From NCBI GenBank assembly GCA_024228115.1, contig JAAETT010000054.1:12793-76792 (forward strand): a DNA stretch of 64,000 nucleotides, read 5' to 3'. The stretch's first letter is position 1. Every line of letters starts with the position of its first letter. The position numbers and the translations under genes are program-made. The notes under the pieces are model-generated. The model had not been told where the DNA came from, made no database searches, and saw only the letters and a list, made by a program, of their open reading frames with translations. Below are positions 9,134 to 51,088 of this stretch, one piece after another. This DNA comes from a bacterium. GTDB lineage: Bacteria; Myxococcota_A; UBA9160; UBA6930.

Positions 9134-9526
9134 TCACCTGGCCTCACCTGTCACGGCGATGCGCCGCAGGATGAGCAATCTGGAGAGCACGGCCGCCTGG
9201 TCCTGGAAAGCGCCGGAATTGCGGTTCAGGGCGATCAGCTCGCTGTCGAGCTCGACACCGTTGCCATCCGGGCGCGATCCCCGCGGACCACGAGTAACCC
9301 GGTAGTCGGCATTCGAACCCGAGCCTCCCGTACCAAGATGCTTGGGATCGGTCCGTTCGAGCTTGGCCGCGGCATCGGCCAGGGCTGATTTGAATTCGAG
9401 ATCCACGCGCCGATATCCCGGCGTGTCTGCATTGGCGATGTTTCCCGCCAATGCTGCCTGACGCGCGAGTCGGAAGCGCATTGCGTCTTCCAACTGCGGC
9501 ATGGCTCCTTTCACCGGCCCGGGCAT
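9134..9526 (-). CDS. flgB: Flagellar basal-body rod protein FlgB (start trimmed from the 171-aa ORF)
   Basis: ...RFRLARQAALAGNIANADTPGYRRVDLEF... The start was moved to ATG 9526, preceded by GGGAGGAG (ATG 9502 is also possible). The longer ORF would contain the sigma-54 promoter at 9570-9585. Confidence 0.88.
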   Translation of the reverse strand: MPGPVKGAMPQLEDAMRFRLARQAALAGNIANADTPGYRRVDLEFKSALADAAAKLERTDPKHLGTGGSGSNADYRVTRGPRGSRPDGNGVELDSELIALNRNSGAFQDQAAVLSRLLILRRIAVTGEAR

Positions 9527-9569: not shown

Positions 9570-9585
9570 TGCAAAGGGAGTGCCA
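9570..9585 (-). promoter_or_regulatory. Sigma-54 promoter upstream of flgB (TGGCAC-TCCCT-TTGCA)
   Basis: The minus strand reads TGGCACTCCCTTTGCA, matching every specified position of the -24/-12 core (TGGCAC-N5-TTGC). It lies about 45 nt upstream of the preferred flgB ATG. Confidence 0.7.
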
Positions 9586-9707: not shown

Positions 9708-11000
9708 TCAGGCGAGTTCGTAGAGGCGAATCTTGTTGCGCAGCGTGCGCACGCTGATTCCGAGGGCCCGAGACGCCATGGTGCGATTGCCGTCGGTGAC
9801 CTCGAGAGAACGAATCACCGCAGCGCGCTCGAGTTCGCGAAGATTGAGAGAGCGCAGCTTCGGAGTCAGGGAATCCCCCGAGCTCCCGCTCGGTGAAATC
9901 AACGGATCCAGATCGATGGAACGCCCCGGATAGAGCAGAGCGGCCCGGCGCATCAGGTTTTCGAGCTCGCGGACGTTGCCGCGAAACGGACGAGAGGAAA
10001 GATCGGCAAGGGCCGCATCCTCGAGCCGTGCGGGCTCGCTGCCCGAGCTGGCAGCGAAGCGATCCAGAAACGATTGCGCGAGCAACGCAATATCCCCAGG
10101 GCGTTCGCGCAGCGGAGGAATCCTCAAGGTGACGACATCGAGCCGGTAGTACAGATCCGCCCGGAAGCGACGACTCGAGACCTCCCGTTCCAAATCTCGC
10201 TGAGTGGTCGCGATGACCCGGATATCGAGTGCCTGCGGCTTGCGTCCTCCGAGCGGGATCACCTCCCGTTCCTGCAGCGCACGCAGGAGTTTGGGTTGAA
10301 GGTCGAGCCGCAGGTCGGCGACTTCATCGAGGACCAGGGTTCCCCCGTTGGCCGCCGCCAGCTGGCCCACCCTGGATTCGACCGCACCGGAGAACGCACC
10401 CTGGGCGTGCCCGAACAGCTCGCTCTCCGCCAAGGTTGGCGTCAGCCCGGCGCAACTCATCACCACGAACGGTCCGCGACGGCGGGAACTCCCATCGTGG
10501 ACCCAACGTGCGAGAAGTTCTTTGCCCGTACCAGATTCGCCCACCAGACGAATCGTTGCCTCACTGGTCGCCACGCGGCGCAGCTGCTCCAACAATGCCC
10601 GCATGCGGGGGTCCTGGGTCAGGAAGGTCCCATCCGATGGACCATCGTGCTCCCTCCGCAAGACCTGGGCCAACGCCCGCTCCAACGAGGACACGTCGAA
10701 GGGCATGCGCAGGTAGTCGGCTGCGCCAACGCGGAATGCATCGACGACCAGGTCGACCCCCGGACGCCCACCCACGGCAACCACCCCGACATCCGGCGCG
10801 CTACGCCTGAGTTCTTCGACCAGGTGGAGGTCTGCATGACAGCTCACTTCGATGAGGGAAGCATCGATGTCACCTTCCGCTGCTCGCGCCAGCAGCACTT
10901 CATCGTCAGCACCTTCTTCTGCCGAGTAGCCGGCAGCGCGAGCAACCGCCAGCACATCCCGGCGCAGGCCTTCGTCGCGTAGACGCGCGAGCACCCTCAC
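9708..11000 (-). CDS. Sigma-54-dependent transcriptional activator (NtrC/FlbD-like) with a degenerate receiver domain
   Basis: AAA+ core VGESGTGKELLARWVH..., the sigma-54 contact loop ESELFGHAQGAFSGA, and a C-terminal Fis-type HTH (NRTMASRALGISVRTLRNKI). The start is set at GTG 11000, overlapping the upstream TGA (GTGA). By eye, the receiver has E at the phospho-Asp position (SLIEVS) and M at the conserved Lys (YLRMPFD). Confidence 0.88.
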   Translation of the reverse strand: MRVLARLRDEGLRRDVLAVARAAGYSAEEGADDEVLLARAAEGDIDASLIEVSCHADLHLVEELRRSAPDVGVVAVGGRPGVDLVVDAFRVGAADYLRMPFDVSSLERALAQVLRREHDGPSDGTFLTQDPRMRALLEQLRRVATSEATIRLVGESGTGKELLARWVHDGSSRRRGPFVVMSCAGLTPTLAESELFGHAQGAFSGAVESRVGQLAAANGGTLVLDEVADLRLDLQPKLLRALQEREVIPLGGRKPQALDIRVIATTQRDLEREVSSRRFRADLYYRLDVVTLRIPPLRERPGDIALLAQSFLDRFAASSGSEPARLEDAALADLSSRPFRGNVRELENLMRRAALLYPGRSIDLDPLISPSGSSGDSLTPKLRSLNLRELERAAVIRSLEVTDGNRTMASRALGISVRTLRNKIRLYELA

Positions 11001-11584
11001 GTGGCTTCTCCCGCGGAGAGCCAGAACACGGCGCCACTGGCGGTACTCTCCGCCTCGGTGCCACATAGAAGGGCAAGCGGTTGGAGCCGACGCAAGGCGT
11101 CCGCTGCGTTCAGATCACCCGTGATCGGCAGCTGCCAGCGTGCTTCGACACCCCAACGTCCTTTGCCGGGAACGAGCCCGACTTCGAGAGGGCCCGGCTG
11201 TGCGTGCTCGGCTGCGGCTCCGGTGAGCGCGATGACCGCTCGACGAAGCACGGCAGGATCGAGCGGTGGAGAATCTTGTGGGCTTTCCACGCGTAGATCC
11301 AGGCCTCGCGCTGCAAGCACCGGGCGAAGACGCGCTGCCACCTCTTCGAGCACGGGCGCGGATGGGCAATCACGGGGCGGACCGGGCGGAGCCAGCACAC
11401 GGAGAGCGAGCTCCAGCTGCCGATCGATCGTCGCCACAGCGTCCCGAATGGTGCAAGCAAGCTCGGCGGTGCGGGGCGTCCTGTCCTCCCGATCGAGTCG
11501 GCTGGCCGCAAGCTCGACACGCGACAACGGTGCGCGGATTTCAAGGATGGCGGAGGCCAGCTCAGCGTCGCGGGTTGCGCTCAC
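10997..11584 (-). CDS. Small histidine-kinase-like protein lacking the phospho-accepting His (pseudokinase candidate)
   Basis: The H-box-like block reads AILEIRAPLSRV, where kinases have sHELRTPL (His replaced by Leu). A DHp-like helix pair follows, then a short degenerate ATPase-like tail with no recognisable G1/G2 boxes. It is translationally coupled on both sides (ATGA upstream, GTGA downstream). Confidence 0.5.
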   Translation of the reverse strand: MSATRDAELASAILEIRAPLSRVELAASRLDREDRTPRTAELACTIRDAVATIDRQLELALRVLAPPGPPRDCPSAPVLEEVAARLRPVLAARGLDLRVESPQDSPPLDPAVLRRAVIALTGAAAEHAQPGPLEVGLVPGKGRWGVEARWQLPITGDLNAADALRRLQPLALLCGTEAESTASGAVFWLSAGEAT

Positions 11585-13728
11585 GGCGTCGCCTCTCCGC
11601 CGGGCAGGAGGGCTCGGCGTGTGGCGGAGAACCCTGGGGCCCCGATCTCTTGCCGCAGCTCGAAGGCTCGTAGCTCGAGCGTCGCCAATCGACTCCAGTG
11701 ATCTGCGCCGGCGGTGGGAACCGCGGCTCGTTCGAATTCACGGCGGCGCTGCCGGTCCTTGCTCAATCGGGCCCTTTGAAATCTGGCCCGCGCGCGCCTG
11801 GATCCATCGGGAAGAGACTCGGCCGCGAGACCGTAGTAGTAGTGGGCGCGCCCAAGCTCGCCGGCATCGGCCAATCGATCCGCCAGCACCAACGCGACGC
11901 CAGCTCGGACGGAAACCTCCGAGTCATCTGCTTTCGGGTCGGGGTCGAGCTGCCAGCGCGAGGTCTCGTCCTCGAGGAGCATCATGGCATCCTCACCCGC
12001 AACTCCTCTTGCGACCAGCTCCGCCAGCCAGCCAAGGGCGCGCAGAGGTGCGTCTCCCTGCTGGACGATCGGAAGCAGGAGTTCGGCGGCTGCCTCATCT
12101 CGCCCCTCGCGCAATGCCAGCTCGGCCTCGAAGAGCGACCAGCTATCGCCGGCCAGACCGCCAGCCGGGACGTCTTCGGATTCGCCTCCTCGAAGATGGG
12201 CGCGGAGTGCAGCTCGTACCGCTGGAAGATCACCTGCACCGAGGGAAGCCCGAGCGAGCCGAAGCGTGAGCCGTGTTGCGAGCTCCGGACCAAATGCGCG
12301 CGTGACAGCGCGATAGCTGGCCAATGCGGGCACCGGCATTCCAAGCGCGAGATAACAATCCGCCAGAGCCACGAAGGGCTCACTCACACGGGCTTGACGC
12401 AGCAGCAGCTCCCGTCTGCCCCCCAACCGGCGGACGGTGGTTGGGCAATGGGATTCGACTGCCGCGAGCAGCGCCGCATCCAGATCATCTCGATGGGTTG
12501 GTGCGAGCTCGTCGTCCGCATCTTCATAGGCGAGCCGTGCGTAGGTTTCCAACGCCTGATCGATCTCGCCTGATTGCACCTGGCGATGGAGAATCAACGC
12601 TCGAGCATGAATCGAAAGCCCCCGCTCGGGGGATCCAGCTGCTTCTCGCAGCACTTCCAACCGGTCTGCCTCCGTAGCCTCGCCCAGCTGGTGATCGGCA
12701 ATGCGAACTCTTGCCAGACGACGAACGTCCCGATCCGAGTGGACATCCGCTACCCGCTCGAGAGCGATCAGGGCATCACTGCCGCGGCCGCGTGCGACCA
12801 GGACATCCGCCTTGCGAATCACCGCAAGACCGGTCGCCAGTTCATCGCCTTCCAGATCTGCTGCCCGGGAAATATGCACGAGAGCACGACGTGAATCTCC
12901 AGCACGAAGAGCAGATTCCGTCGCGACGCGATCAAAGGCCCGCAGATCCAGATCCAGCGAGCGAGCCTCTTCGAAACGAGTGCGGAAACGCAGCCAGCCA
13001 ACCCGGGCGGGCAGCTCGTCCCCCATGCCTGCAACCAGGCGCAAGCGGGCTGCGGCGGCCAGGCGGTCGACCGTCGCGTCGGCAAGGGACTCATAGAGCG
13101 AACGTGATTCCTCGTTGCGCCTGGCGAGGAGCATCGCCTCAGCACGCAGGAACCGTGCGGCTTCCGCGCGGTCGGCGGGGAGTTCAGCACCTTCGCCCTC
13201 CCGGAGTGCCCGAAGGGCCGATGCGCTCGCTTCGGGTGCCCGGTGATTGTGCAGCTCGGCACGGCCGCGTTCGAGAAAAGCGCAGACACGAGCTTCGCTG
13301 CTCCCACCGCGACCGAGGGCCTGGTCGATAACGTGGATCGCTTCCGTCCGCCGAAGCCTCGTATCGGCGACCCGGGCGCTGACGACGGCCAGCCACAAGC
13401 GCAGTTCCGGATTCAGGCGCTCGCCTTCCTTGCGTCTCGTTTCTTCGGCCAGCTCGAGAACCCGACGCACGGCCGATTCTGAGCCGCCGCGCAGGAATGG
13501 CAGAACGGGAAGAAGGGTTGCCGGCGGCTCCTTGGGCAGACAAGGCCCGAGAGCGTCGAGCACGGGCAGCCAAGCCCGACGCGCCGAGAAGATTCGAAAC
13601 GGATCCGGAGGAACCTCGATGGCTTCGGGCGGCATCGTCTCGGCCTCGGACTCCGCGAAACCTGTTCGGCCCGGAACGATGAGCGTCAAGACTGCGCCGA
13701 CCAGGAGAATCGGGATCCGGTGGGTCAC
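11581..13728 (-). CDS. Large secreted all-alpha / TPR-like repeat protein, function unknown
   Basis: The start is set at GTG 13728, overlapping the pilZ stop (GTGA). N-terminal signal-like segment IPILLVGAVLTLIVPGRTGFAES, then about 690 aa of Ala/Leu/Arg-rich helical repeats. Confidence 0.6.
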   Translation of the reverse strand: MTHRIPILLVGAVLTLIVPGRTGFAESEAETMPPEAIEVPPDPFRIFSARRAWLPVLDALGPCLPKEPPATLLPVLPFLRGGSESAVRRVLELAEETRRKEGERLNPELRLWLAVVSARVADTRLRRTEAIHVIDQALGRGGSSEARVCAFLERGRAELHNHRAPEASASALRALREGEGAELPADRAEAARFLRAEAMLLARRNEESRSLYESLADATVDRLAAAARLRLVAGMGDELPARVGWLRFRTRFEEARSLDLDLRAFDRVATESALRAGDSRRALVHISRAADLEGDELATGLAVIRKADVLVARGRGSDALIALERVADVHSDRDVRRLARVRIADHQLGEATEADRLEVLREAAGSPERGLSIHARALILHRQVQSGEIDQALETYARLAYEDADDELAPTHRDDLDAALLAAVESHCPTTVRRLGGRRELLLRQARVSEPFVALADCYLALGMPVPALASYRAVTRAFGPELATRLTLRLARASLGAGDLPAVRAALRAHLRGGESEDVPAGGLAGDSWSLFEAELALREGRDEAAAELLLPIVQQGDAPLRALGWLAELVARGVAGEDAMMLLEDETSRWQLDPDPKADDSEVSVRAGVALVLADRLADAGELGRAHYYYGLAAESLPDGSRRARARFQRARLSKDRQRRREFERAAVPTAGADHWSRLATLELRAFELRQEIGAPGFSATRRALLPGGEATP

Positions 13729-14264
13729 TCGTCTCTCATCGCCCGCTGACGAAGCTCCGAGCGTTGGATCTCCAGCACGTGGGCAATCACCGCATCCCGA
13801 TCGCACTCGGCGATGACCCGAAACCCTGTTGCGATGGTTACGGACTTTCCCTCCGCTTCACATTCCGCGACCCGCCCAATGCTCAGAACCGTATGATTGG
13901 GTGTGCCGGGGATCGTAATCTCCATCAGTACGTCGCTGTCGAGGGCGACTTCCTCGCAGACAGGAAATCGGATCCCGGAACCGGAGAGGGTCACCTCGAG
14001 CGCCCCCTCGGAGGTCATCCAGGATTCTTCTTCGGTCTCGAAGCGGGCGAGAATCCGATCGAGCTTGGTCTCCACCCGGTCGAGCCACTCTGCGAGGCCC
14101 GGATCGACTCTCGAGACATCAGGCGCTTCGCGGGTTTGAATCTCAGATGTCAGACCCGCAATCTCGGAAGGAATCACCCGCCGGCAGCGCACGGGTAGAA
14201 AGGTGGAGACACGGTAGTAGGAACGCTGGTCCGCACCGCTGTACGACGTGTTGGGGACGTTCAA
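13725..14264 (-). CDS. PilZ-domain protein (c-di-GMP receptor)
   Basis: RxxxR motif (QRSYYRV) and a DxSxxG-like motif (TLSGSGIRF). TTG start with AGGAGG 8 nt upstream. First gene behind a consensus sigma-54 promoter. Confidence 0.8.
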   Translation of the reverse strand: MNVPNTSYSGADQRSYYRVSTFLPVRCRRVIPSEIAGLTSEIQTREAPDVSRVDPGLAEWLDRVETKLDRILARFETEEESWMTSEGALEVTLSGSGIRFPVCEEVALDSDVLMEITIPGTPNHTVLSIGRVAECEAEGKSVTIATGFRVIAECDRDAVIAHVLEIQRSELRQRAMRDE

Positions 14265-14297: not shown

Positions 14298-14313
14298 AGC
14301 AAATGACGTGCCA
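14298..14313 (-). promoter_or_regulatory. Sigma-54 promoter upstream of pilZ (TGGCACG-TCAT-TTGCT)
   Basis: The minus strand reads TGGCACGTCATTTGCT, matching every specified position of the extended consensus TGGCACG-N4-TTGCW. About 35 nt upstream of the pilZ TTG start. Confidence 0.75.
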
Positions 14314-14474: not shown

Positions 14475-15317
14475 ATGGCTCGAAGTTCCGAATCCATACG
14501 AAGAGAGCTCGAACGCCGCTACGACGCGGGGAAGATCGAACTTCCCCTGCTTCCCGAAATCGCCCAGCAAGTCATGGAAACGGCTTCGAATCCGTTGACG
14601 GCTTCCGCCGACCTGGCAACGCTCGTACACAGCGATCAGGGCCTTGCGGCAGAAATCCTGAAAGACGCGAATTCCGCGATGCAAGCGGGCCGAGTCGCCA
14701 TCGTGTCCCTTCAGCAGGCCATCTCGCGGCTCGGCATTCAGCGCGTCGTGGAGCTCGCTGTCGCGGCGAGCGTGAGAGATGGTGTGTTCTCGGTGCCGGG
14801 CTTTCAGCAGGAACTCCGGGGGCTCTGGCGTCGCTCTCTCGGCACTGGCCTGTTCGCGAAGGAAGTGGCCCGGGCGTTACGCGAAGATGTCGAGGCCGCC
14901 TTCCTTTCTGGCCTTCTGCGAAACGTCGGCACCGCGCTCCTGATCCGTGCCCTGGCGCGTATTTGTCGTGTGAACGAACCGAACATGCGTCCCGAAGAAT
15001 TCCTGGAGCTGGACGCTGCTTTTCGCGTGCGCCTGGGACTCGATGCCGCCGAGAGCTGGGGCCTTCCTGAGCACGTTCGTGATGCCATCACGTTCGATGG
15101 ATCGGTACCACCGGAAACCGGTACGACTCATGCGAAGCTCGTCCTTCTGGCCGAGCGACTCTTCGACCTGATCGATGCCGACGATGAGAACGCTTCGAAG
15201 GAAGAGGCTCTTCGCGATGATCCGATCCTCGACGTCCTGGGAATCTACCCTGAAGACCTCGATGCTCTCCTCGAAGTGGGCAACACGGTGCGGGAGATGC
15301 TGGAGACCGGCGAGTGA
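14475..15317 (+). CDS. HDOD-domain signalling protein
   Basis: LPLLPEIAQQVMETASNPLTASADLATLVHSDQGLAAEILKDANSA... is the HDOD N-terminal pattern. Confidence 0.85.
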   Translation: MARSSESIRRELERRYDAGKIELPLLPEIAQQVMETASNPLTASADLATLVHSDQGLAAEILKDANSAMQAGRVAIVSLQQAISRLGIQRVVELAVAASVRDGVFSVPGFQQELRGLWRRSLGTGLFAKEVARALREDVEAAFLSGLLRNVGTALLIRALARICRVNEPNMRPEEFLELDAAFRVRLGLDAAESWGLPEHVRDAITFDGSVPPETGTTHAKLVLLAERLFDLIDADDENASKEEALRDDPILDVLGIYPEDLDALLEVGNTVREMLETGE

Positions 15318-16714
15318 GCGAACGCAGGACGGTCGAGATTCTCGTCATCGGAGGCGGGCCGGGTGGGCAGAAAGCGGCCGTTGCCGCCGCCAAGGCGGGG
15401 AAACACGTCGCGCTGGTTGAATCGGGAAGAGATATCGGCGGCGCCTGCGTCCACACCGGGACCATCCCCAGCAAAGCATTGCGCCAGCTCGCGGTCGAAG
15501 CCCGCGGTGGTGCCGACACAGCCGGAGAGGTCGACGATGGCCAACGGGCCCTTCCCCTGGCGGAACTGAAGGCCCGTGTCGAAGCCGTGCGGACGGGTCA
15601 TAGCCGGTTCATGCGGGCCCAGTTGGAACGCAACGGAATCGAGATCGCGCACGGCCGAGGACGATTCGAATCCGATCATGTCGTTTCGGTCACGACGCCA
15701 AGGGGCGCCGTCACGGAATACGAAGCAGAGAGCATCGTCATCGCGACCGGCTCGCGCCCGCGTGAACCCGATGAATTCTCGGTCGATCACGAACACGTCC
15801 TCGACAGCGATTCGATCCTTTCGCTCAGCTACGTCCCCGAGAGTCTGATCGTGCTGGGCGGGGGGGTCATCGCCTGCGAGTACGCCTCGGTCTTCTTGAC
15901 GCTCGGTAGCCGCGTCACGATCGTCGACCAAGCGCCCAGGCCCATGGCATTCCTCGACCCGGAGCTTTCCGTGGGCTTCATCGAAGCCTTCGAACGCCGG
16001 GGGGGAACCTACGTATCCGAGGCTCAGGCGACGGGAATCGAATGGGACGGGTTCTCTCGCAACATGGTCACGCTAGGGGATGGCAGCTTCCACGAAGCCT
16101 CGAAGGTCCTGGTGGCGCTGGGGCGGGTCGGTTGTCTTCCCGAACTCGACCTCGAACGAGCCGGCCTCGAGGCGAGTTCACGCGGCCTGCTCGAGGTGAA
16201 CGAGAATCTGCAGACCCGCGTGCCCCACATCTATGCCGTTGGCGACGTCATCGGCCCGCCGGCCCTGGCCACGACAGCGATGGAGCAGGGACGTCGCGCC
16301 GCGACCCACGCCGCAGGCGGCCAGATCGTCGAACAGGATGCGGCGCTGCCGGTCGGGATCTACACGATCCCCGATATGGCCACAGTGGGCCTCACCCAAG
16401 CGGAAGCGGAAGAGCGGGGAATCGACACCGTCGCTGGCCGCGCGCGATTCGACGAGGTCGCACGGGCGCTCATCAACCACCGCACAGAAGGCTGGCTCAA
16501 GCTCGTCGCGGATCGACACAGCGGCCGACTCCTCGGTGTGCAGATCCTTGGCGAGAACGCGACTGATCTCATTCACGTGGGGCAGGTCGCCATTCACGCC
16601 AGATGGAACGCGGACGACTTCGTCGAAAACGTGTTCAATTTCCCGACACTCACCGAAGCCTACAGGGTGGCTGCGCTCGCAGTCCTTGGTGAGCTAGGCG
16701 CCCTCAAAGCGTAG
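15314..16714 (+). CDS. sthA: Soluble pyridine nucleotide transhydrogenase-like flavoprotein (SthA family)
   Basis: FAD fold VIGGGPGG. GGACVHTGTIPSKAL has a single Cys then Thr, as in SthA, rather than the CxxxxC of lipoamide dehydrogenase. NAD fold and dimerisation domain are present. GTG start overlaps the HDOD stop (GTGA). Confidence 0.8.
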   Translation: MSERRTVEILVIGGGPGGQKAAVAAAKAGKHVALVESGRDIGGACVHTGTIPSKALRQLAVEARGGADTAGEVDDGQRALPLAELKARVEAVRTGHSRFMRAQLERNGIEIAHGRGRFESDHVVSVTTPRGAVTEYEAESIVIATGSRPREPDEFSVDHEHVLDSDSILSLSYVPESLIVLGGGVIACEYASVFLTLGSRVTIVDQAPRPMAFLDPELSVGFIEAFERRGGTYVSEAQATGIEWDGFSRNMVTLGDGSFHEASKVLVALGRVGCLPELDLERAGLEASSRGLLEVNENLQTRVPHIYAVGDVIGPPALATTAMEQGRRAATHAAGGQIVEQDAALPVGIYTIPDMATVGLTQAEAEERGIDTVAGRARFDEVARALINHRTEGWLKLVADRHSGRLLGVQILGENATDLIHVGQVAIHARWNADDFVENVFNFPTLTEAYRVAALAVLGELGALKA

Positions 16715-16772: not shown

Positions 16773-17915
16773 CTAGGCGTCGGGCTCTTCGTTGGATTCT
16801 TCCCTGTCGGACGTCTTTCCGTCGATGGCGAGGGCGATTCGATCCCGCCCGAGCTCCTTGGCCTGGTACAAGGCGCGGTCGGCCCGATCGAACCAGCTTC
16901 GGGCATCTTCGCCAGATTCCAGCCGTGCAGCGCCGATCGAGACGGAGACCCGGATCGGCTCGTCCTCGCCTTCGCACACTACATCGAGCTCACGAATGGC
17001 GAATAGCAGCCGATCACCGATCTTGTTCGCTGTCTCGAGACTATCCTCGAGGATCACGGCGGAGAATTCATCCCCGCCGTAGCGCGCCAGGAAATCGCCT
17101 TTGCGCCTGAACGTATGGGCCAACGTCGACGCGACCTGACGCAACACCTCGTCGCCAGCGGCATGGCCGTACCGATCGTTGACCCACTTGAAGTGGTCCA
17201 CGTCGATCATGAACAAGATGGCTGGCTGCCCGAGCACCAGTCCGAGACTGACCACCCGGGAGACCTGTTGGTCGAGGCCTGCGCGATTGCAGATCTCGGT
17301 CAAGGCATCGACCTGGAGCTGATCCTTCACCTCGACGAGTTCGCTCGCCATATCGTCGAGTTGGCCTGAGAGCTCGTTGATCTGGCCCTGCTCGCGGAGC
17401 TTGCGGCCCTCGATGCGACTCTGGATCAACGAGATCGATGAGAGGGCCTCGCGCTTCAGTGCCTCGGTATCGTTCGAGTCCACCGCGCGGCGCAGATCGA
17501 GCAGCTTGGAGGCGACTTCACCATCCGTCTGGCGATCTTCGGTGATGGCCCGCCCGAGACTCTCGACGAACTGCCAGATGACCTGGCGAAGGTCTTCCAT
17601 GTTGCGCGTGACGTATTCATGCTCGGCCCTGCGATGCTCGCGGACGAAGCGTCCAAGCCCGGTCCAATCTTTCTTGTTGGCGGGCGGAGCCGATGGATCA
17701 TCCAGCCCTGGCCGGGGCGAGGCGAGTGCGGCGTGGCGAGCCCAGCCCTCGAAATCCTCCTGGATTTCCTCTTCTTCACGCCCTTCCAGCGCAATGGCCA
17801 TCTCACCCCAGACCCGAAGGGCTGCGACGAGCGCGTCTAGCGCGGGATCTTCATCCGTTCCTGCTGCAGACGAGTTCTTCTTCAACGGCGGTCCCACAAG
17901 CGCCTCCTTCGGCAC
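16773..17915 (-). CDS. Diguanylate cyclase (GGDEF) with an N-terminal coiled-coil sensor region
   Basis: GGDEF motif (ARYGGDEFSAVILE) with an upstream RxxD I-site (RKGD). Confidence 0.9.
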   Translation of the reverse strand: MPKEALVGPPLKKNSSAAGTDEDPALDALVAALRVWGEMAIALEGREEEEIQEDFEGWARHAALASPRPGLDDPSAPPANKKDWTGLGRFVREHRRAEHEYVTRNMEDLRQVIWQFVESLGRAITEDRQTDGEVASKLLDLRRAVDSNDTEALKREALSSISLIQSRIEGRKLREQGQINELSGQLDDMASELVEVKDQLQVDALTEICNRAGLDQQVSRVVSLGLVLGQPAILFMIDVDHFKWVNDRYGHAAGDEVLRQVASTLAHTFRRKGDFLARYGGDEFSAVILEDSLETANKIGDRLLFAIRELDVVCEGEDEPIRVSVSIGAARLESGEDARSWFDRADRALYQAKELGRDRIALAIDGKTSDREESNEEPDA

Positions 17916-18668: not shown

Positions 18669-19658
18669 TCAGGAGCGGCGAGCCGCTGCCACCGCCCTCT
18701 GGATTTCCACTAGATCGTACGGTCGAAGGACGAAGCCGCGCGCGCCTGCGCGTAGTGCGCATTCGACCATCCCGCGCGTCGCCCGCTCGTGCGCCAATAG
18801 CGCAATGGTCCCGGAAGTCTGTTCGTTGCGCACCAGATGCTCAACGAATTCGAGACCGGACCGGCCTCCCAACTCCCACGCGACGATCACTGCGTCGGCC
18901 TCTTGGATCGATTCCCGGCTGTCGTCACCGAAATCGGCAGGATCGATGGCTGCGAGCTCTTTCTCCTGCTCCTCACTGGCCTCCTCGATGCGGTCCCTTT
19001 CCTCTCCGTCCGAATCGATGATGATGACCGAGGCTTCCTCTGCCAGAGAATCCCCTGCGGCCTTTCCATCGCCCTGTCCGATCAAGATCAAGAGAGGCGC
19101 CGGGTCGAACCCCTCGACACCAAGCTCCAGATCGATGCACCACTGCGTTCCGTCACCGAGCCATGCAGTATTCGAGGAGGCGTCCTCCAGCGGACGAGCA
19201 TCTCGAAGTTGAAGATCACCGAACTCGTGGGGCTCGAGCAGACGCGTGAGCACAGCCGCAGCGAGCTTCATGACTTCACCGAAGCCTTCGGAGTGAGCGG
19301 CGAAATCACCCCCTTCGCGAGCTTCGCCGACCGCATCCCCCTCGAGGCCGGCCTGGAGAGCTGCGAGGCCGATGGCGTCCGGAGTGGGGCAAAGGAGGTG
19401 AACGTCTCGCGGTTGATCTCCTTCGCTGCGCGTCTGCTGATCGACGACAACGTCCAGGCACTCGAGGTCGGCGGCCGAGACAGACCGCGTGCCCTTGACC
19501 TCGACCGCGGCCGCGGGCCCCAGGAGCGCGCTCAGATCCTTGGAGAATGCCTCGGAGAATTGCGTGGCCACCTCAGCGAGGCTCTCCGAATCGAGTCCGT
19601 CTTCGCCAGACGCGACTTCTTCCTCCTCTTCGACCGCGTCGGCCTCTTCTTCGCTCAT
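18669..19658 (-). CDS. Acidic protein: CheC/CheX-like N-terminal region plus a receiver-like C-terminal domain (probably a pseudo-receiver)
   Basis: The N-terminal repeats (LAEVATQFSEAFSKDLSALLG..., EGFGEVMKLAAAVLTRLL) resemble CheC/CheX/FliN-type segments. C-terminus VIIIDSDGEE...DAVIVAWELGGRSGLEFVEHL...LRAGARGFVLRPYD has receiver topology, but the expected phospho-Asp position reads Ala (by-eye alignment). ATGA coupling to the upstream gene. Confidence 0.4.
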   Translation of the reverse strand: MSEEEADAVEEEEEVASGEDGLDSESLAEVATQFSEAFSKDLSALLGPAAAVEVKGTRSVSAADLECLDVVVDQQTRSEGDQPRDVHLLCPTPDAIGLAALQAGLEGDAVGEAREGGDFAAHSEGFGEVMKLAAAVLTRLLEPHEFGDLQLRDARPLEDASSNTAWLGDGTQWCIDLELGVEGFDPAPLLILIGQGDGKAAGDSLAEEASVIIIDSDGEERDRIEEASEEQEKELAAIDPADFGDDSRESIQEADAVIVAWELGGRSGLEFVEHLVRNEQTSGTIALLAHERATRGMVECALRAGARGFVLRPYDLVEIQRAVAAARRS

Positions 19659-21925: not shown

Positions 21926-22750
21926 CTACTGGAGTAGCGCCAACGCGTTCTGCGTCGACACATTCGCCTGGGCGAGCACCGAAATACCGGCCTGCTGCAG
22001 AACCTGGTTCCGCGTCAGGATGGCCGTCTCGGATGCAATGTCGACGTCCCGGATCCGGGACTCAGCAGCCGCCGTGTTCTCCACCGAGACTGCGATCGAA
22101 CGGATCGTGGACTCGAGGCGATTCTGGGCGGTACCGAAACCGGCGCGCAAGGACGCGACGGTGCCGATGGCCGAGTCGATCAACGACAGGGCCGCCTGGG
22201 CGTTGGTTACCGTATCGATACCAGCCGTATCGACACCAATACCCGTGGACGTGGCATTCACACCAGTGACCGTGATCTGGTCATTGGCCGTGTTGTCCAC
22301 GCCTACCTGGAAGGTGACGCTGGCGGCAGTACCGTCCAACAGCGCCGTGCCGTTGAACTCGGTAACCTGGGCAATTCGTCCGATCTCGGACACCAGGTCG
22401 TTGAACTCATTGTCCAGCGTGGTGCGCTCGGAAGCCCCGAGGGTGCCGTTCGCGGACTGGATGGCGAGTTCGCGCAGACGCGTCAGGATGCCACTCGTTT
22501 CGTTGAGCGCTCCTTCTGCGATCTGCAGCAGCGAGATGCCGTCGTTGGCATTCCGCTGCGCCTGCTGAAGACTCCGCACCTCGGCGCGGAACCTCTCGGA
22601 GATCGCCAGACCAGCTGCATCGTCGGACGCGCGGGTGATCCGCAGGCCCGAAGAAAGCCGTTCCAACGAACGCTGCAGGTTGTTGGTCGTGTTGGCGAGG
22701 TTTCGCTGCGCGTTAAGCGAAGCGATATTGGTGTTGACTCGAAGACCCAT
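21926..22750 (-). CDS. fliC: Flagellin (short, 274 aa)
   Basis: The start is trimmed to ATG 22750, with GGAGGAA 10 nt upstream. MGLRVNTNIASLNAQRNL...LSSGLRITRASDDAAGLAISE... and C-terminal ...ETAILTRNQVLQQAGISVLAQANVSTQNALALLQ. The short central region is Ser/Thr-rich. Confidence 0.95.
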   Translation of the reverse strand: MGLRVNTNIASLNAQRNLANTTNNLQRSLERLSSGLRITRASDDAAGLAISERFRAEVRSLQQAQRNANDGISLLQIAEGALNETSGILTRLRELAIQSANGTLGASERTTLDNEFNDLVSEIGRIAQVTEFNGTALLDGTAASVTFQVGVDNTANDQITVTGVNATSTGIGVDTAGIDTVTNAQAALSLIDSAIGTVASLRAGFGTAQNRLESTIRSIAVSVENTAAAESRIRDVDIASETAILTRNQVLQQAGISVLAQANVSTQNALALLQ

Positions 22751-22761
22751 GGGGTTTTGTT

Positions 22762-22798
22762 TCCTCCGTGAACGGTCCTGGCTCACCGATCCTTGGTG
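22762..22798 (-). promoter_or_regulatory. Candidate CsrA-binding GGA motifs in the flagellin 5' leader, including the Shine-Dalgarno sequence
   Basis: The leader reads CACCAAGGATCGGTGAGCCAGGACCGTTCACGGAGGAA-N10-ATG. The first GGA sits in the loop of a CACC/GGTG hairpin, the second in a GTGA/TCAC hairpin, and the third is the SD. csrA and fliW are 2 kb away. Confidence 0.45.
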
Positions 22799-22923
22799 GG
22801 CCATTGTTGGTGACCAGCTCATTCACTCGAATGCGCCGGTGGGGGGACACCACGTGAGCACGCTCACTCGGCATCCGATCCCGGCATTTCCCCTTTTTCA
22901 ACAGCCGGAACCGCAGTCATGGC

Positions 22924-22939
22924 TGCAAGGCGGGTGCCA
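22924..22939 (-). promoter_or_regulatory. Sigma-54 promoter upstream of flagellin (TGGCAC-CCGCC-TTGCA)
   Basis: The minus strand reads TGGCACCCGCCTTGCA. About 175 nt upstream of the flagellin ATG, which implies a long leader. Confidence 0.65.
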
Positions 22940-23072
22940 TGAGCCCTGGAGGAAACGCCCGAGGCCGTCTCCTGGCTTCGCCGTCCTCCGATCAACACGC
23001 GGCCTTCCCTCGAACCATGCACGCGTGCTGCGTGTATGTGATGGCCGGCACTCCATTCTTTCGAAGCAGCGA

Positions 23073-23088
23073 CGTTTCAACTCGAAAG
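23073..23088. promoter_or_regulatory. Candidate enhancer site B (CGTTTCA-ACT-CGAAAG)
   Basis: Motif family member lying between two divergent sigma-54 promoters. Its centre is about 142 nt from the flagellin -24 GG and about 57 nt from the GNAT -24 GG. The flanks (GCGACGTTTCAA..GAAAGC) are nearly identical to site A. Confidence 0.5.
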
Positions 23089-23136
23089 CCTTGAACACAA
23101 TTCGTCGTTCCCTGGTGACGAGAATGCGCGCGAGCA

Positions 23137-23152
23137 CGGCACCGTTCTTGCG
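23137..23152 (+). promoter_or_regulatory. Sigma-54 promoter upstream of the GNAT gene (CGGCAC-CGTTC-TTGCG)
   Basis: The plus strand reads CGGCACCGTTCTTGCG. About 35 nt upstream of ATG 23186. Confidence 0.6.
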
Positions 23153-23185
23153 GGAGAAGGTTTCGATTCTTCCGGGAGTGCATTC

Positions 23186-24307
23186 ATGGTTGGGGAAAGC
23201 GATGCGGTCGGTCGCGTGACCTCCGAGCAGTGGCCTGGCGTGACGGCGTGGCTCGAGCGCGGCCTCCGCGACGGCATCCGGGGAAGACTCCAGGCGGAGT
23301 ACCCGATTTCCTTGACGCCCGAGAATGCTGGCTCCCAGAGGCTCGTTCGAAGCGGCGGCCATTCCTTGTCCCATGCCATGGTTCACCGTGTGACAGGGCG
23401 AATCGGCGACGCGAGATTGCCGCTGGGATTGATTGGCCTGGTCTATACAGAGGAGGAAGCCAGAGGCCGGGGCCTGGCGGGACGTTGTGTCGAAGCCTGC
23501 GTCGAGGACCTTCTCCGCGACGGCGTCGCGCTGGCGGTTCTGTGGAGTGATCGCCACGCCTTCTACGCACGCCTGGGGTTCCATCCTGCAGGCCGTGAAC
23601 GATTCCTGGTGCTCGACCAGAGAGTGCTGGGGCGCTTGGCCGCCTGTGACGAAAACGACCCGCTGCCTCCCGTCAGCGAACCCTTGGCCGCGCACTGGCC
23701 GGCGATCGAAGCATTGTACGAGGCGAGACGTTTTCGGGCCGATCGAAGGCCCGGCGATCTCGCTCTGCTGGCGGCGGCGCCGGAATCCGAGCTTCGGGTC
23801 GCCTGCCGTGATGGCCAACCGGTTGCGTACGCGGCCCTCGGACGCGGGAACGACTTTGCCGAGGTCGTCCACGAGTGGGCCGGTGAGGAAGCAGGGGTCA
23901 TCGCCTGCCTGAAAGCCCTCCTTGTTGGACGCCGAGCCGTAGGCTTGATGACGGGACCCGAGGATGGCGACCTCGTCGCCCGCCTGCGCACAGCCGGGGC
24001 TGCGCAACACGATGGCGTTTTTGGCCTGGTACGCCTGTTGGATCCACGCGGGCTTTGGAAGGAAGTGCGGACCCATGTCCCCGAGCTCGAGGGGATCGCG
24101 TTGGCAAGAACTCATGGCGGAGTTCGCGTCACGGGCAGTACTGGCTCCGTGGAGATTTCCGACCCGCAGGCACTCGCCCTGCTGCTCGAAGGGGATTCGC
24201 AAGCCGACCTGAGCGCTCTCAGACCCGCCCTTTCCGATCGGGAATGGCACGGGCTGGAGAAGCGCCAGCCCCTTCCCCTCTATCTCTGGGGATTCGATTC
24301 GATCTGA
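23186..24307 (+). CDS. Eis-like GNAT N-acetyltransferase (GNAT plus extended C-terminal region)
   Basis: Acetyl-CoA motif region ...LIGLVYTEEEARGRGLAGRCVEACVEDLL...YARLGF. 373 aa. The antisense 574-aa ORF (22898-24622) is treated as a shadow ORF. Confidence 0.75.
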   Translation: MVGESDAVGRVTSEQWPGVTAWLERGLRDGIRGRLQAEYPISLTPENAGSQRLVRSGGHSLSHAMVHRVTGRIGDARLPLGLIGLVYTEEEARGRGLAGRCVEACVEDLLRDGVALAVLWSDRHAFYARLGFHPAGRERFLVLDQRVLGRLAACDENDPLPPVSEPLAAHWPAIEALYEARRFRADRRPGDLALLAAAPESELRVACRDGQPVAYAALGRGNDFAEVVHEWAGEEAGVIACLKALLVGRRAVGLMTGPEDGDLVARLRTAGAAQHDGVFGLVRLLDPRGLWKEVRTHVPELEGIALARTHGGVRVTGSTGSVEISDPQALALLLEGDSQADLSALRPALSDREWHGLEKRQPLPLYLWGFDSI

Positions 24308-24774
24308 GTCGCCTCTGGAGCTGCCGAATCGCCAGGAACGGACGGAATGGGCAAGGGCTCGCGTGTGGCGTGATGGCTCCGCTCGAGGATCACCTGTGCG
24401 CCTCGACGAGCCTGTGAATTGACCAGGAGTGGCGCTGCAAGATTCAAGGTCGTCGCTGCCTCCCGAACGGTGGCAATCGCGTAGAGCTCGATGCCTTCGG
24501 TTGTCTTTGCATCGATCGATTCGAGTTGGGATCGGCTCAGGTCCGGTGCGTACTCCGGAAAGAACTGGCGCGGGTCGGTTACGACGAATGCCAGGTCCGC
24601 CCGGTCCAGGCTCACGAGCCATAGGAAGGCCGAGTCACGATCGTGACGCAGCAGGGCGAAACGGCGCACGTCCGCGAAGCCGGGCAATCCGTCGAACGCC
24701 AGCACCTGGTCGGCCGGGATCTCGAGTCGCCCGAAGCGTTGGTGATCCATGGTTACGTCGTCTGCTCCGCTCAC
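24280..24774 (-). CDS. fliW: Flagellar assembly factor FliW
   Basis: ...[29 protein letters not shown]...[23 protein letters not shown]... is the FliW pattern. GTG 24774 overlaps the csrA stop. ATG 24750 is an alternative start. Confidence 0.9.
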
Positions 24775-42790: not shown

Positions 42791-44221
42791 TCAACCGTTC
42801 AACGGCAAGCGGCTGGCGCGCACGTGGGCGTCGCTCTCGATTCCGAATTCTTTCAGGCGTCGCCACAGAGTCGTCGTTGAGATCTGCAGCAGCTCAGCGG
42901 CTCGCTTCCGATTCCATCCGACCTTGTCGAGTGTCTCCAGGATGTGGCGGCGCTCGATACCTGGAAGGCTCTGGATTCCCGTATCCAGGACGAGCCGCTT
43001 CGGCTCGCGAACATGAAGCGGAAGGTCATCCACCTCGATCCGACCCGTGCGACACAATGCAACGGCGCGCTCGATCGCGTTCTCGAGCTCTCGCACGTTG
43101 CCCGGCCATCGATATCCCGCGAGCCGATCCATCGCGGCGTCGTCGATATCCTCGACCGGGAAGCTGGTCTTGTCCGCCATCTGGCCGAGGAAGTGTCGTG
43201 CCAGAAGCGGAATATCTTCCAATCGCTCGCGAAGCGGCGGAACATGCACCGGAATCACGGCAAGGCGGTAGTAGAGGTCTTCTCGGAAGCGACCTTCGGC
43301 TACCTCGGTTTCGAGATCCTTGTTGGTGGCCGTGACGAGCCGGACATCGACATAACGCGTGACCTCCTCGCCCACGGGCCGGATTTCACCGGTCTGCAGG
43401 AAGCGCAGTAGTTTCGCCTGCATGGAGAGCGGCATCTCTGCTACTTCGTCCAGGAAGACGGTGCCTCGATCGGCGTGCTCGAAAAGGCCCTTGCTGTTCG
43501 AAGAAGCTCCGGTGAACGCTCCGCGGCGGTGTCCGAAGAGCTCACTCTCCAGAAGCGTTTCGGGAAATGCTGCGGAGTTCACGGCCGAAAAGACCCTCTC
43601 GCCACGGCGACTCGCGTCGTGAATCGCTCGCCCGATCAGTTCCTTTCCGGTTCCGGTTTCGCCGGTGATCAAAGCCGTGCTGTCGGTCTCGGCGACCTTG
43701 CGGACCAGTTCGAGAAGCTCTCGCATGGCCAGGGATTCGCCGATGATTCCGGGGAAGCGATGTTTCCAACCGGTCGAGGTTGGCAACGTTCGGGTCGGCT
43801 CCGGCTCCTCGATGATCTTGGGCAGCCGGGCGACGACCTCTTCCAGCGCTTCCGCGTCCCAGGGCTTGCCCAGGAAATAGGAAACGCCGGCCTGATTGAT
43901 GGCAAGCTGGGCAATATGCGGATCATCCGAGCCAGTGATCAGCACGCGACTGATCTCCGGCCAGGTATCCCGCACGGTCGTGAGCAACTCCACGCCGGAG
44001 CCGGTCGTGAGCCGCTGGTCGGCGATCACGCCCTGAATGCGCTCGGCGTGAAGCAAGGCCATGGCCTGGGCCATGTCGCCGGCTTCGATCGGTCGAACGT
44101 CGAGTCGTTTCAATGCCCGCGCGAGGGCGCGGCGCACCAAAGGCTCGTCGTCGACGACCAATACAGTCGGCAGCGATGCGTTCACTTGCCGCCTGTCCTT
44201 TTCTTCCCACCGTCCGTTCAT
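42791..44221 (-). CDS. Sigma-54-dependent response regulator (NtrC/FleQ-FleR class) with a canonical receiver
   Basis: The start is trimmed to ATG 44221. The receiver has VLVVDDE, VIADQRL, LITG and LGKPW. AAA+ ITGETGTGKELIGRAIH, ESELFGHRRGAFTGA. HTH RKRAAELLQISTTTLWRRLKE. Confidence 0.92.
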   Translation of the reverse strand: MNGRWEEKDRRQVNASLPTVLVVDDEPLVRRALARALKRLDVRPIEAGDMAQAMALLHAERIQGVIADQRLTTGSGVELLTTVRDTWPEISRVLITGSDDPHIAQLAINQAGVSYFLGKPWDAEALEEVVARLPKIIEEPEPTRTLPTSTGWKHRFPGIIGESLAMRELLELVRKVAETDSTALITGETGTGKELIGRAIHDASRRGERVFSAVNSAAFPETLLESELFGHRRGAFTGASSNSKGLFEHADRGTVFLDEVAEMPLSMQAKLLRFLQTGEIRPVGEEVTRYVDVRLVTATNKDLETEVAEGRFREDLYYRLAVIPVHVPPLRERLEDIPLLARHFLGQMADKTSFPVEDIDDAAMDRLAGYRWPGNVRELENAIERAVALCRTGRIEVDDLPLHVREPKRLVLDTGIQSLPGIERRHILETLDKVGWNRKRAAELLQISTTTLWRRLKEFGIESDAHVRASRLPLNG

Positions 44222-44404
44222 TTTGGAGCCACCCCGCTCGCGTTTCCGCGAATAACTGCCGGCGGCAGAGACAGTGCCGGCTGCGATCATGGGCTCATGG
44301 ATCGGCGGGGGAACGGGCCACCTTGACGATATTCTTGGACTTTTCCGTCCTGACTGGATCTCGGGAGAGGCCTTTTGTTGGCCTTTCGCCCCTTTTCAGC
44401 CAAT

Positions 44405-47577: not shown

Positions 47578-48564
47578 GTGATGCTCCGTGAGGCGCGAAA
47601 GATCCTCCTCCGGGTGGAGGCAAATGCCGAGATCGGCCGGGGCCACGCCGTGAGGTCGGCTGCCCTGGTCGATGCACTGGCTTCGGACGAGCCGCTGATC
47701 GTCGTGGGCGAAGGGGCGGAGCTGCGATCACTCTTCCCCAACGCAGAAATCGAGCCGTCCGAACGATTTGCTGAGCTCGCCGCCGAGGCCAGCGTCACCA
47801 TCATCGATCATCCGAACCCCCGTGTCGCGGACCTCGAAATCCCGGGGCTGAAGGTGGTGATCGACGATGGGGGCGACATTGCTTCCGCGGATATCGTGGT
47901 CGCCGGTGGTGGCCCCCCTTCTCGCTACGCCTACCCGAAGCTCGGTGAAGGCGTCCTTCGGTTGTGTGGGCCCCAGTACGCTCTCTTGCGTCCGGCCTTC
48001 TCGAAGGAACGACGGATCAGGGATGAACGATCCAAGCCCGGATTGCTTCTAGCGGCTGGCTCGGGAGGCAACGCTGCGCGTTGGTTGATAGGCGTACTCG
48101 AGGTTGCGTCTGGGATTTCCGGCCAACCATCCATCGACGTCGTCGTCGGAGCCTCGTTCGCAGAACACGACCGGCTCCGGATTCTCTGCGAAGAAGGAGG
48201 CCACTGGCTCGGCTGCAACCTCTCGGGCTCTGCCCTCGCCAACCGGCTAGCCACGGCTTCCGTCGCCGTCGTCACCGGAGGCATGATCGTGCCGGAGGTT
48301 CTGGCACTCGGTACCCCATGCGTAGCGTTTCCGAACGAAAGGGACCTCGTCGAGGAAATCGCCTGGTTGGATGAGCTGGACGCTCTTTGCGGGCTCGATC
48401 CACGCGGCGCCCCGGAAGAAACCTGGCTTCGCGTCGGAGAGCTCCTCTCGGATGTTCGGCAGGCCGAGGCGTTGGCGGCTTCGGGCATGCGCCTGTTCGA
48501 TGGACGCGGCGCCGATCGCGTTGCGGCAGCCATCGAAGAACGGCTCTCCGGAGCGAACCGCTGA
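47578..48564 (+). CDS. pseG: PseG-like UDP-sugar hydrolase (GT28-like fold), pseudaminic acid pathway
   Basis: N-terminus ILLRVEANAEIGRGHAVRSAALVDAL matches the PseG RxDxxxxIGxGHxxR pattern. The C-terminal ...VVTGGMIVPEVLALGTPCVAF is GT-B-like. Confidence 0.72.
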   Translation: MMLREARKILLRVEANAEIGRGHAVRSAALVDALASDEPLIVVGEGAELRSLFPNAEIEPSERFAELAAEASVTIIDHPNPRVADLEIPGLKVVIDDGGDIASADIVVAGGGPPSRYAYPKLGEGVLRLCGPQYALLRPAFSKERRIRDERSKPGLLLAAGSGGNAARWLIGVLEVASGISGQPSIDVVVGASFAEHDRLRILCEEGGHWLGCNLSGSALANRLATASVAVVTGGMIVPEVLALGTPCVAFPNERDLVEEIAWLDELDALCGLDPRGAPEETWLRVGELLSDVRQAEALAASGMRLFDGRGADRVAAAIEERLSGANR

Positions 48565-51078: not shown

Positions 51079-51088
51079 GGAACATTCC

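Follow-up and report, generated by a model that had tools for sequence, protein, structure and literature searches.

The DNA analysed here is a stretch of 64,000 nucleotides (the window) from a bacterium of the lineage Myxococcota_A (assembly GCA_024228115.1, contig JAAETT010000054.1, positions 12,793 to 76,792 of the forward strand), and it represents one large flagellar cluster in which FlhF and FlhG are encoded too. Our analysis concerns an operon of four genes that encode, in order, a PilZ-like protein, a helical-repeat protein of 715 aa, a kinase-like protein of 195 aa (the pseudokinase) and an activator of the FlbD-like type. The flgB string follows downstream on the same strand (Table 1). 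A preliminary description of this DNA had placed the pseudokinase-activator pair just upstream of flgB within a single same-strand gene string and had reported translational coupling of the two genes, and both observations are correct. The GTG start codon of the activator overlaps the TGA stop codon of the pseudokinase, with three bases shared (ACGTGAGG), and the same GTGA overlap occurs at all three junctions of the operon, i.e., also on both sides of the gene for the 715-aa protein. The mechanical list of open reading frames (ORFs) contained a longer version of the activator with an ATG at 11066. We set the start at the GTG at 11000, because the N-termini of orthologs begin there and the 4-bp overlap is conserved. 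Given this overlap, pseudokinase and activator are probably made in fixed proportion. GC content at third codon positions did not help with gene calling, since at 63% GC it gave no discrimination.

Table 1. Features of the window (positions counted from its first letter; aa, amino acids)
Feature	Position	Strand	Basis or remark
Pseudokinase gene, 195 aa	10997-11584	minus	Stand-alone kinase core, no sensor domain
Degenerate H-box ILEIRAPL	11525-11548	minus	Leu14 at acceptor His, Ala18 at H+4 Thr/Asn position
CA-like domain lacking N-box Asn, G1, F and G2 boxes; ATP lid deleted	11015-11362	minus	Profile alignment to ZraS
Activator gene, 430 aa, FlbD-like sigma-54 enhancer-binding protein	9708-11000	minus	GTG start
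Pseudo-receiver, aa 1-112	10665-11000	minus	R8/D9, E51, G77, M99 at DD, D, T, K positions
Glu51 codon GAA, acceptor position	10848-10850	minus	Sequence and alignment
AAA+ sigma-54 interaction module	9897-10625	minus	Sigma54_activat, E=8e-60
GAFSGA loop	10383-10400		Thr-to-Ser variant of GAFTGA
Fis-type HTH_8 DNA-binding domain, aa 387-425	9726-9842	minus	HTH_8, E=1.7e-9
Helical-repeat (TPR-like) gene, 715 aa	11581-13728	minus	Signal-peptide-like N-terminal segment MTHRIPILLVGAVLTLIVPGRTGFA/ESE
PilZ-like gene, 179 aa, heads operon	13725-14264	minus	Pfam PilZ, E=0.019
flgB	9134-9526	minus	First of flgB-flgC-fliE-fliF-fliG-fliH-fliI string
Sigma-54 -24/-12 element TGGCACTCCCTTTGC	9571-9585	minus	123 bp past activator stop, 45-70 bp before flgB start
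Sigma-54 -24/-12 element TGGCACGTCATTTGC	14299-14313	minus	35 bp upstream of PilZ-like gene, heads operon
Third perfect sigma-54 element	22925-22939	minus	About 100 bp upstream of flagellin gene
Flagellin gene	21926-22822		
574-aa ORF	22898-24622		No Pfam or NCBIfam match
Second sigma-54 response regulator	42791-44290	minus	Between motAB and fliL
HDOD protein	14475-15317	plus	Divergent from operon
Pyridine-nucleotide disulphide oxidoreductase	15314-16714	plus	Divergent from operon
GGDEF diguanylate cyclase	16773-17915	minus	Adjoins HDOD/oxidoreductase pair
329-aa protein with C-terminal receiver	18669-19658	minus	31.3 bits, just over Pfam threshold; N-terminal part unassigned
PseG-like hydrolase	47578-48564	plus	
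B12-binding radical SAM protein	50900-52564	plus	
MptE-like (Maf-type) protein	52642-54861	minus	
PseB-like dehydratase	55732-56700	minus	

The 195-aa protein is a histidine-kinase core that has neither the acceptor His, nor ATP boxes, nor a sensor domain. A plain phmmer search with it against the PDB found no match, and the kinase core became visible only by family profile and predicted structure. The AlphaFold2 (AF2) model, built with 24 homologs (mean predicted local distance difference test score, pLDDT, 83.8), shows a hairpin like that of the dimerization and histidine phosphotransfer (DHp) domain at aa 3-64 and an alpha/beta domain like the catalytic and ATP-binding (CA) domain at about aa 75-190. 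When this model was compared with the PDB using Foldseek, all 50 of the top 50 matches were histidine-kinase cores, among them ZraS, CpxA, EnvZ, RetS, DivL, and HK853 (E about 1e-7 to 5e-6, template modelling (TM) score up to 0.70). Searched against the PDB, the family profile likewise matched ZraS across DHp and CA with E=6.8e-9.

The preliminary description had read the H-box as carrying Leu in place of the phosphorylated His. This holds in each alignment that we made: Leu14 (position 14 also in the family numbering) stands opposite the His of AHEIRNPL in the profile alignment to ZraS, is aligned with the His of EnvZ, and faces the His of genuine kinases with the H-boxes SHELRTPL, SHDLRNPL, and VHEIRNPL in BLASTP alignments. 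The sole His of the protein, H127, is not conserved. Pfam HisKA scored 13.4 bits, under the gathering cutoff of 26.9, and no HATPase_c match was found in the protein by Pfam, in line with the claim that its ATPase-like tail has no obvious G boxes. In the ZraS alignment, both N-box Asn residues are replaced by Ala, the G1 box DSGKG by non-Gly residues, and a deletion of 15 residues removes the position of the F/G2 lid. Only 12 residues precede the H-box, and therefore the protein has no sensor domain.

An exhaustive search of 1.84 billion representative proteins with the pseudokinase (E < 1e-3) returned 138 matching representatives, nearly all about 200 aa long. No family member has a Pfam domain on record, neither Pfam nor NCBIfam holds a model of the family, and the source names of members, where given, are generic ("HAMP domain-containing histidine kinase", "hypothetical protein"). 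Among the long matches we found no fusion of pseudokinase and activator, and those with a readable H-box are genuine, His-bearing kinases. The literature that we searched contained no description of the family of about 200 aa or of a conserved pseudokinase/pseudo-receiver operon. These kinase-like proteins are an undescribed family.

Residues were counted in 132 aligned short members. The His position is occupied by Leu in 59, Val in 27, Ala in 16, and Ile in 6 of them, and by His in just one, P0082 (AHAMRSAL); this protein is missing the ATP lid as well, so that its His is probably incidental. Other parts of the H-box are strongly conserved (Arg at H+3 in 92%, Pro at H+5 in 76%, Leu at H+6 in 97%), and the best conserved stretch of the family, RxPL(S/A)R(I/V)ELAASxLxRE, runs from H+3 to H+19. 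In real kinases, this surface is the one on which the receiver or regulator docks. The only near-invariant residue of the family is Asp54 in helix 2, present in 131 of the 132 members. Hairpin geometry predicts that Asp54 lies level with Arg17 (H+3), beside the former His site, and the two might form a structural salt bridge or a functional site.

The N-terminal domain of the activator falls under the Pfam cutoff too, with Response_reg at 20.6 bits against 30.2, and none of these profile comparisons recovered a catalytic His or Asp in either protein. Used as a query by itself, the receiver domain retrieved nothing from a large protein collection, though orthologs exist. A profile of seven orthologous N-domains matched the NtrC, CheY, and Spo0F receivers over about 110 residues with E=7e-15 to 1e-13, the NtrC receiver being the match at 7e-15. 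In the alignment to NtrC, E51 corresponds to D54, G77 to T82, M99 to K104, and R8/D9 to D11/D12, which bears out the earlier assignment by eye of Glu, Gly, and Met to the Asp, Thr, and Lys positions and of an incomplete acidic pocket. The register of Glu51 is fixed by distant orthologs, which carry D, S/T, and K in the same columns. A single-sequence phmmer alignment to NtrC1 had put Ser48 opposite the Asp, a shift of three residues; according to the ortholog profile and the orthologs that carry Asp, the correct counterpart is Glu51. With Glu51, Gly77, and Met99 at these sites, the receiver is predicted to be unable to accept a phosphoryl group.

The rest of the activator appears intact in its ATPase, its sigma-54 contact loop, and its DNA-binding domain, as had been proposed before. 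The AAA+ module contains Walker A (GESGTGKE), the GAFSGA loop, Walker B (LVLDEV), FRADLYYRL, and GNVRELEN, together with arginine-finger and sensor II motifs, and AAA_lid_14 was matched in addition to Sigma54_activat. The Thr-to-Ser change that distinguishes GAFSGA from GAFTGA is tolerated in PspF. Across orthologs, the helix-turn-helix (HTH) domain is the best conserved part of the protein (GISVRTLRNKIR). The best NCBIfam match of the activator is Caulobacter FlbD (NF050807) with 349.5 bits; this is far under the equivalog cutoff of 750, and the protein is therefore not an FlbD equivalog.

We compared 13 distinct related loci with the window (labels within the series L001-L014), to which a metagenome scan with the 24-sequence family alignment had contributed four. 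They come from uncultured, Myxococcota-like metagenome-assembled genomes labelled Myxococcota, Myxococcaceae, 'Deltaproteobacteria', and in one case Spirochaetales. In 13 of 13 loci, the pseudokinase gene stands at the head of the flgB operon and is followed immediately by an activator gene of the same type, and flgB-flgC-fliE-fliF-fliG follow downstream in every locus that extends that far. Upstream, the helical-repeat protein is likewise encoded in all 13 and the PilZ-like protein in most. The 4-bp start/stop overlap of pseudokinase and activator is found in 9 of 14 sequences (the window and the 13 loci), and three more have an overlap of 13-16 bp. Gene order is maintained, with uninterrupted reading frames, even in loci whose identity has fallen to about 30%.

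The ratio of nonsynonymous to synonymous substitution rates (dN/dS), computed against three orthologs, was 0.12-0.29 for the whole pseudokinase and 0.06-0.19 for its DHp part. For the activator it was 0.055-0.17 in the receiver and 0.06-0.11 in the AAA+ domain. Both of the apparently dead modules are thus under purifying selection comparable to that on the AAA+ domain.

The receivers of the related activators differ in what they have kept. Those of the window, L001-L003, and L005 have Glu, Gly or Ser, and Met at the D/T/K positions, and the partial L011 shows the same Glu and Gly. L007 and L012 retain Asp, Ser, and Lys as well as a GAFTGA-type loop (GSFTGV and GAFTGA, respectively). L013 combines Asp, Gly, and Met with a degenerate GAFTGA loop. 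In L006, L008, L009, L010, and L014, the receiver keeps Asp and Lys, with Ser or Thr at the T position (unclear in L014), while GAFTGA is deleted and Walker B altered. Such GAFTGA-less activators (e.g., L008, 7612-8856) keep the HTH domain and may serve as a repressor or as partner of another activator.

The pseudokinase is dead throughout the family, also beside receivers with Asp, Ser/Thr, and Lys, and receiver decay is therefore later and clade-specific. Judged from these alignments, the kinase-like partner appears to have died first, and the receiver to have lost Asp, Thr, and Lys only in the clade of the window. The preliminary description had proposed that both partners lost phosphotransfer together while keeping their pairing. 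The lost residues and the conserved pairing stand. Co-degeneration does not, given the live receivers in L006-L010, L012, and L014, and in recent history the two proteins do not seem to have undergone joint decay as a phosphotransfer pair. The losses form a mosaic across the loci that affects three catalytic layers, namely kinase, receiver, and AAA+ loop, whereas the pairing, the receiver and AAA+ folds, and the highly conserved HTH domain are always kept. This mosaic suggests that what is conserved at the core of the system is contact between proteins, together with DNA binding.

Perfect TGGCAC-N5-TTGC elements, i.e., sigma-54 promoter sequences, occur three times in the window, all on the minus strand, against 0.10 expected; none of 100 shuffled sequences reached three. 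Two of them flank the operon and the third precedes a flagellin gene, where it lies within the 3' end of a 574-aa ORF. The flgB-side element recurs in the corresponding place in the 8 related loci that reach this far, and the operon-side element likewise recurs in the orthologous loci that include its site. Neither element deviates there by more than one mismatch. A search for upstream activator-binding motifs common to the three sigma-54 promoter regions gave no convincing result.

We propose that the pseudokinase acts as a stoichiometric protein-protein regulator of the co-encoded activator and dispenses with phosphotransfer, a reading of the sequence data to which we give about an even chance. 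A pseudokinase dimer would bind the activator stoichiometrically and control its assembly into an active AAA+ ring, and gating of this ring would set sigma-54 transcription of the flgB operon and of the pair's own operon in a phosphotransfer-free manner. Docking might use the ancestral interface, with DHp helix 1 below the former His placed against receiver helix 1, a mode for which support comes from the extremely high conservation of this part of DHp helix 1 and from a conserved pattern in receiver helix 1, L(R/Q)xxLxxxVRxAG(Y/F). Alternatively, the DHp domain together with the CA-like domain might capture the AAA+ domain as in NifL. Glu51 may bias the receiver toward the 'on' conformation; the main role of the partner would then be that of a brake, or anti-activator. 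Input would probably come via the PilZ-like protein (cyclic di-GMP, c-di-GMP), the exported repeat protein, or the assembly state of the flagellum or basal body.

In favour of this regulator model we count the kinase fold with its lost chemistry, the residues at the active-site positions of the receiver, the intact AAA+ and HTH domains, the selection on both proteins, their adjacency in every locus, the gene overlaps, and the flanking promoters. In addition, the closest solved relative by profile, ZraS, is the kinase of a sigma-54 activator. There is also precedent for the steps it assumes. In the complex NifL(269-519):NifA(188-445), the DH+GHKL core suffices to bind the AAA+ domain, forming a 2:2 complex that needs stoichiometric expression (PMC12998190), and FlbD is regulated by FliX without phosphorylation (PMC3096577). 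Glu is the commonest acceptor replacement in pseudo-receivers (PMC12632262), and Glu at the acceptor site activates NtrC-type regulators (Klose et al., 1993, as cited in PMC4395418). The suggestion in the preliminary description that Glu51 is a phosphomimic is plausible in the light of the D54E exchange, which activates the NtrC-like regulator NmpR (PMC6211767).

Several observations weigh against the regulator model. Glu is thought to mimic phospho-Asp via Thr and Lys (PMC12632262), and both are gone in the window receiver, so that the canonical phosphomimic logic may not apply. The sigma-54 elements are kept even in loci whose paired activator has no GAFTGA, which means that another activator must fire them, at least there. 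The second sigma-54 response regulator of the window has a canonical receiver (VVDDEP, VIADQRL, LITGSDD, and LGKPWD, with DD, D, T, and K in place), GAFTGA, and an HTH domain, and by its sequence is also a candidate activator at flgB. Finally, rpoN is not in the 64-kb window.

Among characterized systems, NifL-NifA and FliX-FlbD are the closest working likenesses; the niche is that of FlgSR, FlrBC, and FleSR, and the protein joins the pseudokinases DivL and RetS. NifL is homologous to kinases, performs no phosphotransfer, and controls a sigma-54 enhancer-binding protein stoichiometrically; its DH+GHKL core corresponds to the two domains that form the whole 195-aa protein, and nifL and nifA are co-expressed at matched levels (PMC12998190). 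As far as sequence can tell, the window pair shares the defining features of this type, namely a kinase-like DH+GHKL core without phosphotransfer that is co-expressed with a sigma-54 activator. NifL differs in that it carries a pair of PAS sensor domains and binds ADP/ATP through its GHKL domain, whereas the window protein has no sensor and a destroyed nucleotide site. NifA carries a GAF domain rather than a receiver, and it serves the nif instead of a flagellar regulon. NifL was absent from the top 50 structural and the top 60 sequence matches listed.

The preliminary description had offered FliX-FlbD as the conceptual model. This is apt insofar as no NCBIfam family matched the activator better than FlbD, but the closest mechanistic precedent is NifL-NifA, in which the anti-activator is a kinase homolog. 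FliX is not known to have a kinase fold, and no match to FliX turned up among about 50 window proteins in general domain scans. FlbD resembles the activator as a flagellar sigma-54 activator with a divergent receiver that lacks key phosphorylation residues and with a trans-acting, non-phosphorylating partner (PMC3096577, PMC7064773). FliX has no demonstrated kinase activity (PMC3096577), whereas the partner in the window is kinase-derived and translationally coupled. The targets of Caulobacter FlbD are moreover the rod and hook genes of the later class III, while the window sigma-54 promoter precedes flgB-fliF.

FlgS-FlgR, FlrB-FlrC, and FleS-FleR likewise pair a cytoplasmic kinase gene with a sigma-54 activator of rod and hook genes in polar flagellates (PMC7064773). 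Their kinases have the His and a working HATPase_c domain and their regulators the Asp, all of which are gone in the window pair. FleQ/FlrA with FleN (FlhG) is a similar case of a flagellar sigma-54 master regulator with an unphosphorylatable receiver-like domain that is controlled by a partner and c-di-GMP (PMC12632262), and the window has PilZ-like, GGDEF, HDOD, and FlhG genes nearby. However, FleN is a MinD-type ATPase and not a kinase homolog, FleQ itself binds c-di-GMP, and a Pfam scan gave no match to the FleQ domain. DivL and RetS also reuse the kinase-core fold for protein binding (PMC4211667), but they are large, multi-domain proteins with sensor domains and neither is paired with a sigma-54 activator; DivL in addition has Tyr in place of the His and recognizes a genuine receiver in its phosphorylated form. 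ZraS is among the best structural matches (TM 0.70), its HEIRNPL corresponds to LEIRAPL here, and its partner is a sigma-54 activator, yet ZraS retains the acceptor His together with all four ATP boxes (N, G1, F, and G2) and senses through a periplasmic domain. In terms of class, the pair thus includes neither a histidine kinase, nor a phosphorylatable receiver, nor an FlbD equivalog, whereas the activator does belong to the sigma-54 enhancer-binding proteins.

Four other explanations have to be set against the regulator model. The real target of the pseudokinase could be a different two-component protein, so that two tiers of the flagellar hierarchy would be cross-wired, either through a DHp heterodimer with a genuine kinase (as in RetS-GacS) or through docking on the phosphorylated receiver of the second regulator (as in DivL-DivK). 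The canonical sigma-54 regulator at 42791-44290 would provide such a target, and the persistence of the sigma-54 promoters beside activators without GAFTGA fits this idea. No kinase domain was recognized among the about 50 window proteins scanned, but the kinase of that regulator could be encoded elsewhere. RetS and DivL do appear among the Foldseek matches, which reflects a common kinase fold and not a common function. We consider cross-wiring unlikely, as strict adjacency in all 13 loci and translational coupling point to the FlbD-like activator as the target. Somewhat less probable in our view is that the activator is constitutive owing to Glu51 and is set by its amount, via the sigma-54-driven and possibly autoregulated operon, with the pseudokinase being a scaffold docked at the basal body that exerts no direct control over the activator. 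Glu as the commonest acceptor replacement, the often constitutive activity of pseudo-receivers (PMC12632262), and the operon's own sigma-54 promoter agree with such an arrangement, and cytoplasmic FlgS, which has little recognizable sensor region, senses MS-ring/rotor (FliF/FliG) assembly by direct contact (PMC7064773). Yet the tight translational coupling argues for a 1:1 complex, and the pseudokinase is equally conserved beside Asp-bearing receivers and beside lost AAA+ loops.

Residual phospho-chemistry appears very improbable. Here the pseudokinase would be a kinase-dead phosphatase, or transfer phosphate by an unconventional residue, and would elsewhere dephosphorylate the Asp-bearing receivers. 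Phosphatase activity of HisKA proteins requires E/D at H+1 and T/N at H+4, and in EnvZ-type kinases it does not strictly depend on the His or the CA domain. The family does retain the R, P, and L at H+3, H+5, and H+6, and some members have the E/D..T/N combination. The full E/DxxT/N motif is, however, found in only 33 of the 132 members, with no excess over the expectation from single-position frequencies, and on this count we rejected phosphatase activity as a general function of the family. The window protein has Ala at H+4 and a partner with no Asp to dephosphorylate, and there is no conserved His anywhere in the protein and no ATP-binding box. The loss of catalytic residues in both proteins might also mean that the two modules are decaying, functionless remnants. 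This is the least credible of the four, and it is contradicted by the selection and conservation data: dN/dS values resemble those of the AAA+ domain, frames are intact, synteny is maintained to about 30% identity, and the family comprises 138 representatives of nearly uniform length.

Taken jointly, the parts of the operon could belong to an undescribed flagellar checkpoint module of flagellated Myxococcota-type bacteria, a possibility that we put forward only tentatively and hold to be rather doubtful as a whole. It would consist of a PilZ-like c-di-GMP reader, an exported helical-repeat protein, a minimal pseudokinase, and an FlbD-like activator joined by 4-bp overlaps, and in it a fossil kinase-regulator docking interface would have become a stoichiometric on/off switch, the catalytic layers being lost independently by lineage and the pairing always kept. 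The case appears solid at the level of sequence, and the function is what we infer from it.

According to a 2025 review, the switching of pseudo-receivers is still largely unknown (PMC12632262). Most characterized pseudo-receivers are orphans without a kinase-like partner, whereas here one is naturally and permanently coupled to a pseudokinase. The related loci form a graded series, with receivers live or dead, AAA+ loops live or dead, and the dead kinase partner constant, and they make it testable whether a signal can pass without phosphate, either through the kinase-regulator docking interface or by capturing the AAA+ domain as NifL does. If the regulator model is right, this would be a third way to couple sigma-54 flagellar transcription to cell state, beside FlgSR-type phosphorylation and FliX-FlbD. 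The analysis also defines an unannotated family, some members of which are called 'histidine kinase' by annotation sources. All members come from uncultured organisms, which restricts experiments to heterologous or in vitro work.

The operon encodes two further proteins upstream. The PilZ-like protein has the motifs RxxxR (RSYYR) and a variant xLSGxG in which Thr, Val, or Leu replaces the usual D/N; among the orthologs that cover the respective motif, RxxxR is conserved in 10 and xLSGxG in 11, and a PF07238 match is on record for the L008 ortholog. A long helical insert separates the two motifs in the window protein and its orthologs, and c-di-GMP binding is putative. For the 715-aa protein, a low-confidence single-sequence AF2 model (pLDDT 54.8) was all-alpha. 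Database searches gave no informative match for this protein. It is predicted to be exported, its gene is coupled on both sides to genes for cytoplasmic proteins, and in the periplasm it may serve the flagellum as a scaffold or sensor. When the sequences of the 715-aa and the PilZ-like proteins were compared with the PDB, only chance-level matches came up.

Next to the operon, the same HDOD, oxidoreductase, and GGDEF neighbours are found in L001 and L002, which suggests a c-di-GMP input to the locus. The 329-aa receiver protein, encoded after fliS and a fliT-like gene, is conserved in these two loci as well. Farther along the window, the PseG-like, radical SAM, MptE-like, and PseB-like genes lie beside motility genes and together look like a flagellin-glycosylation island.

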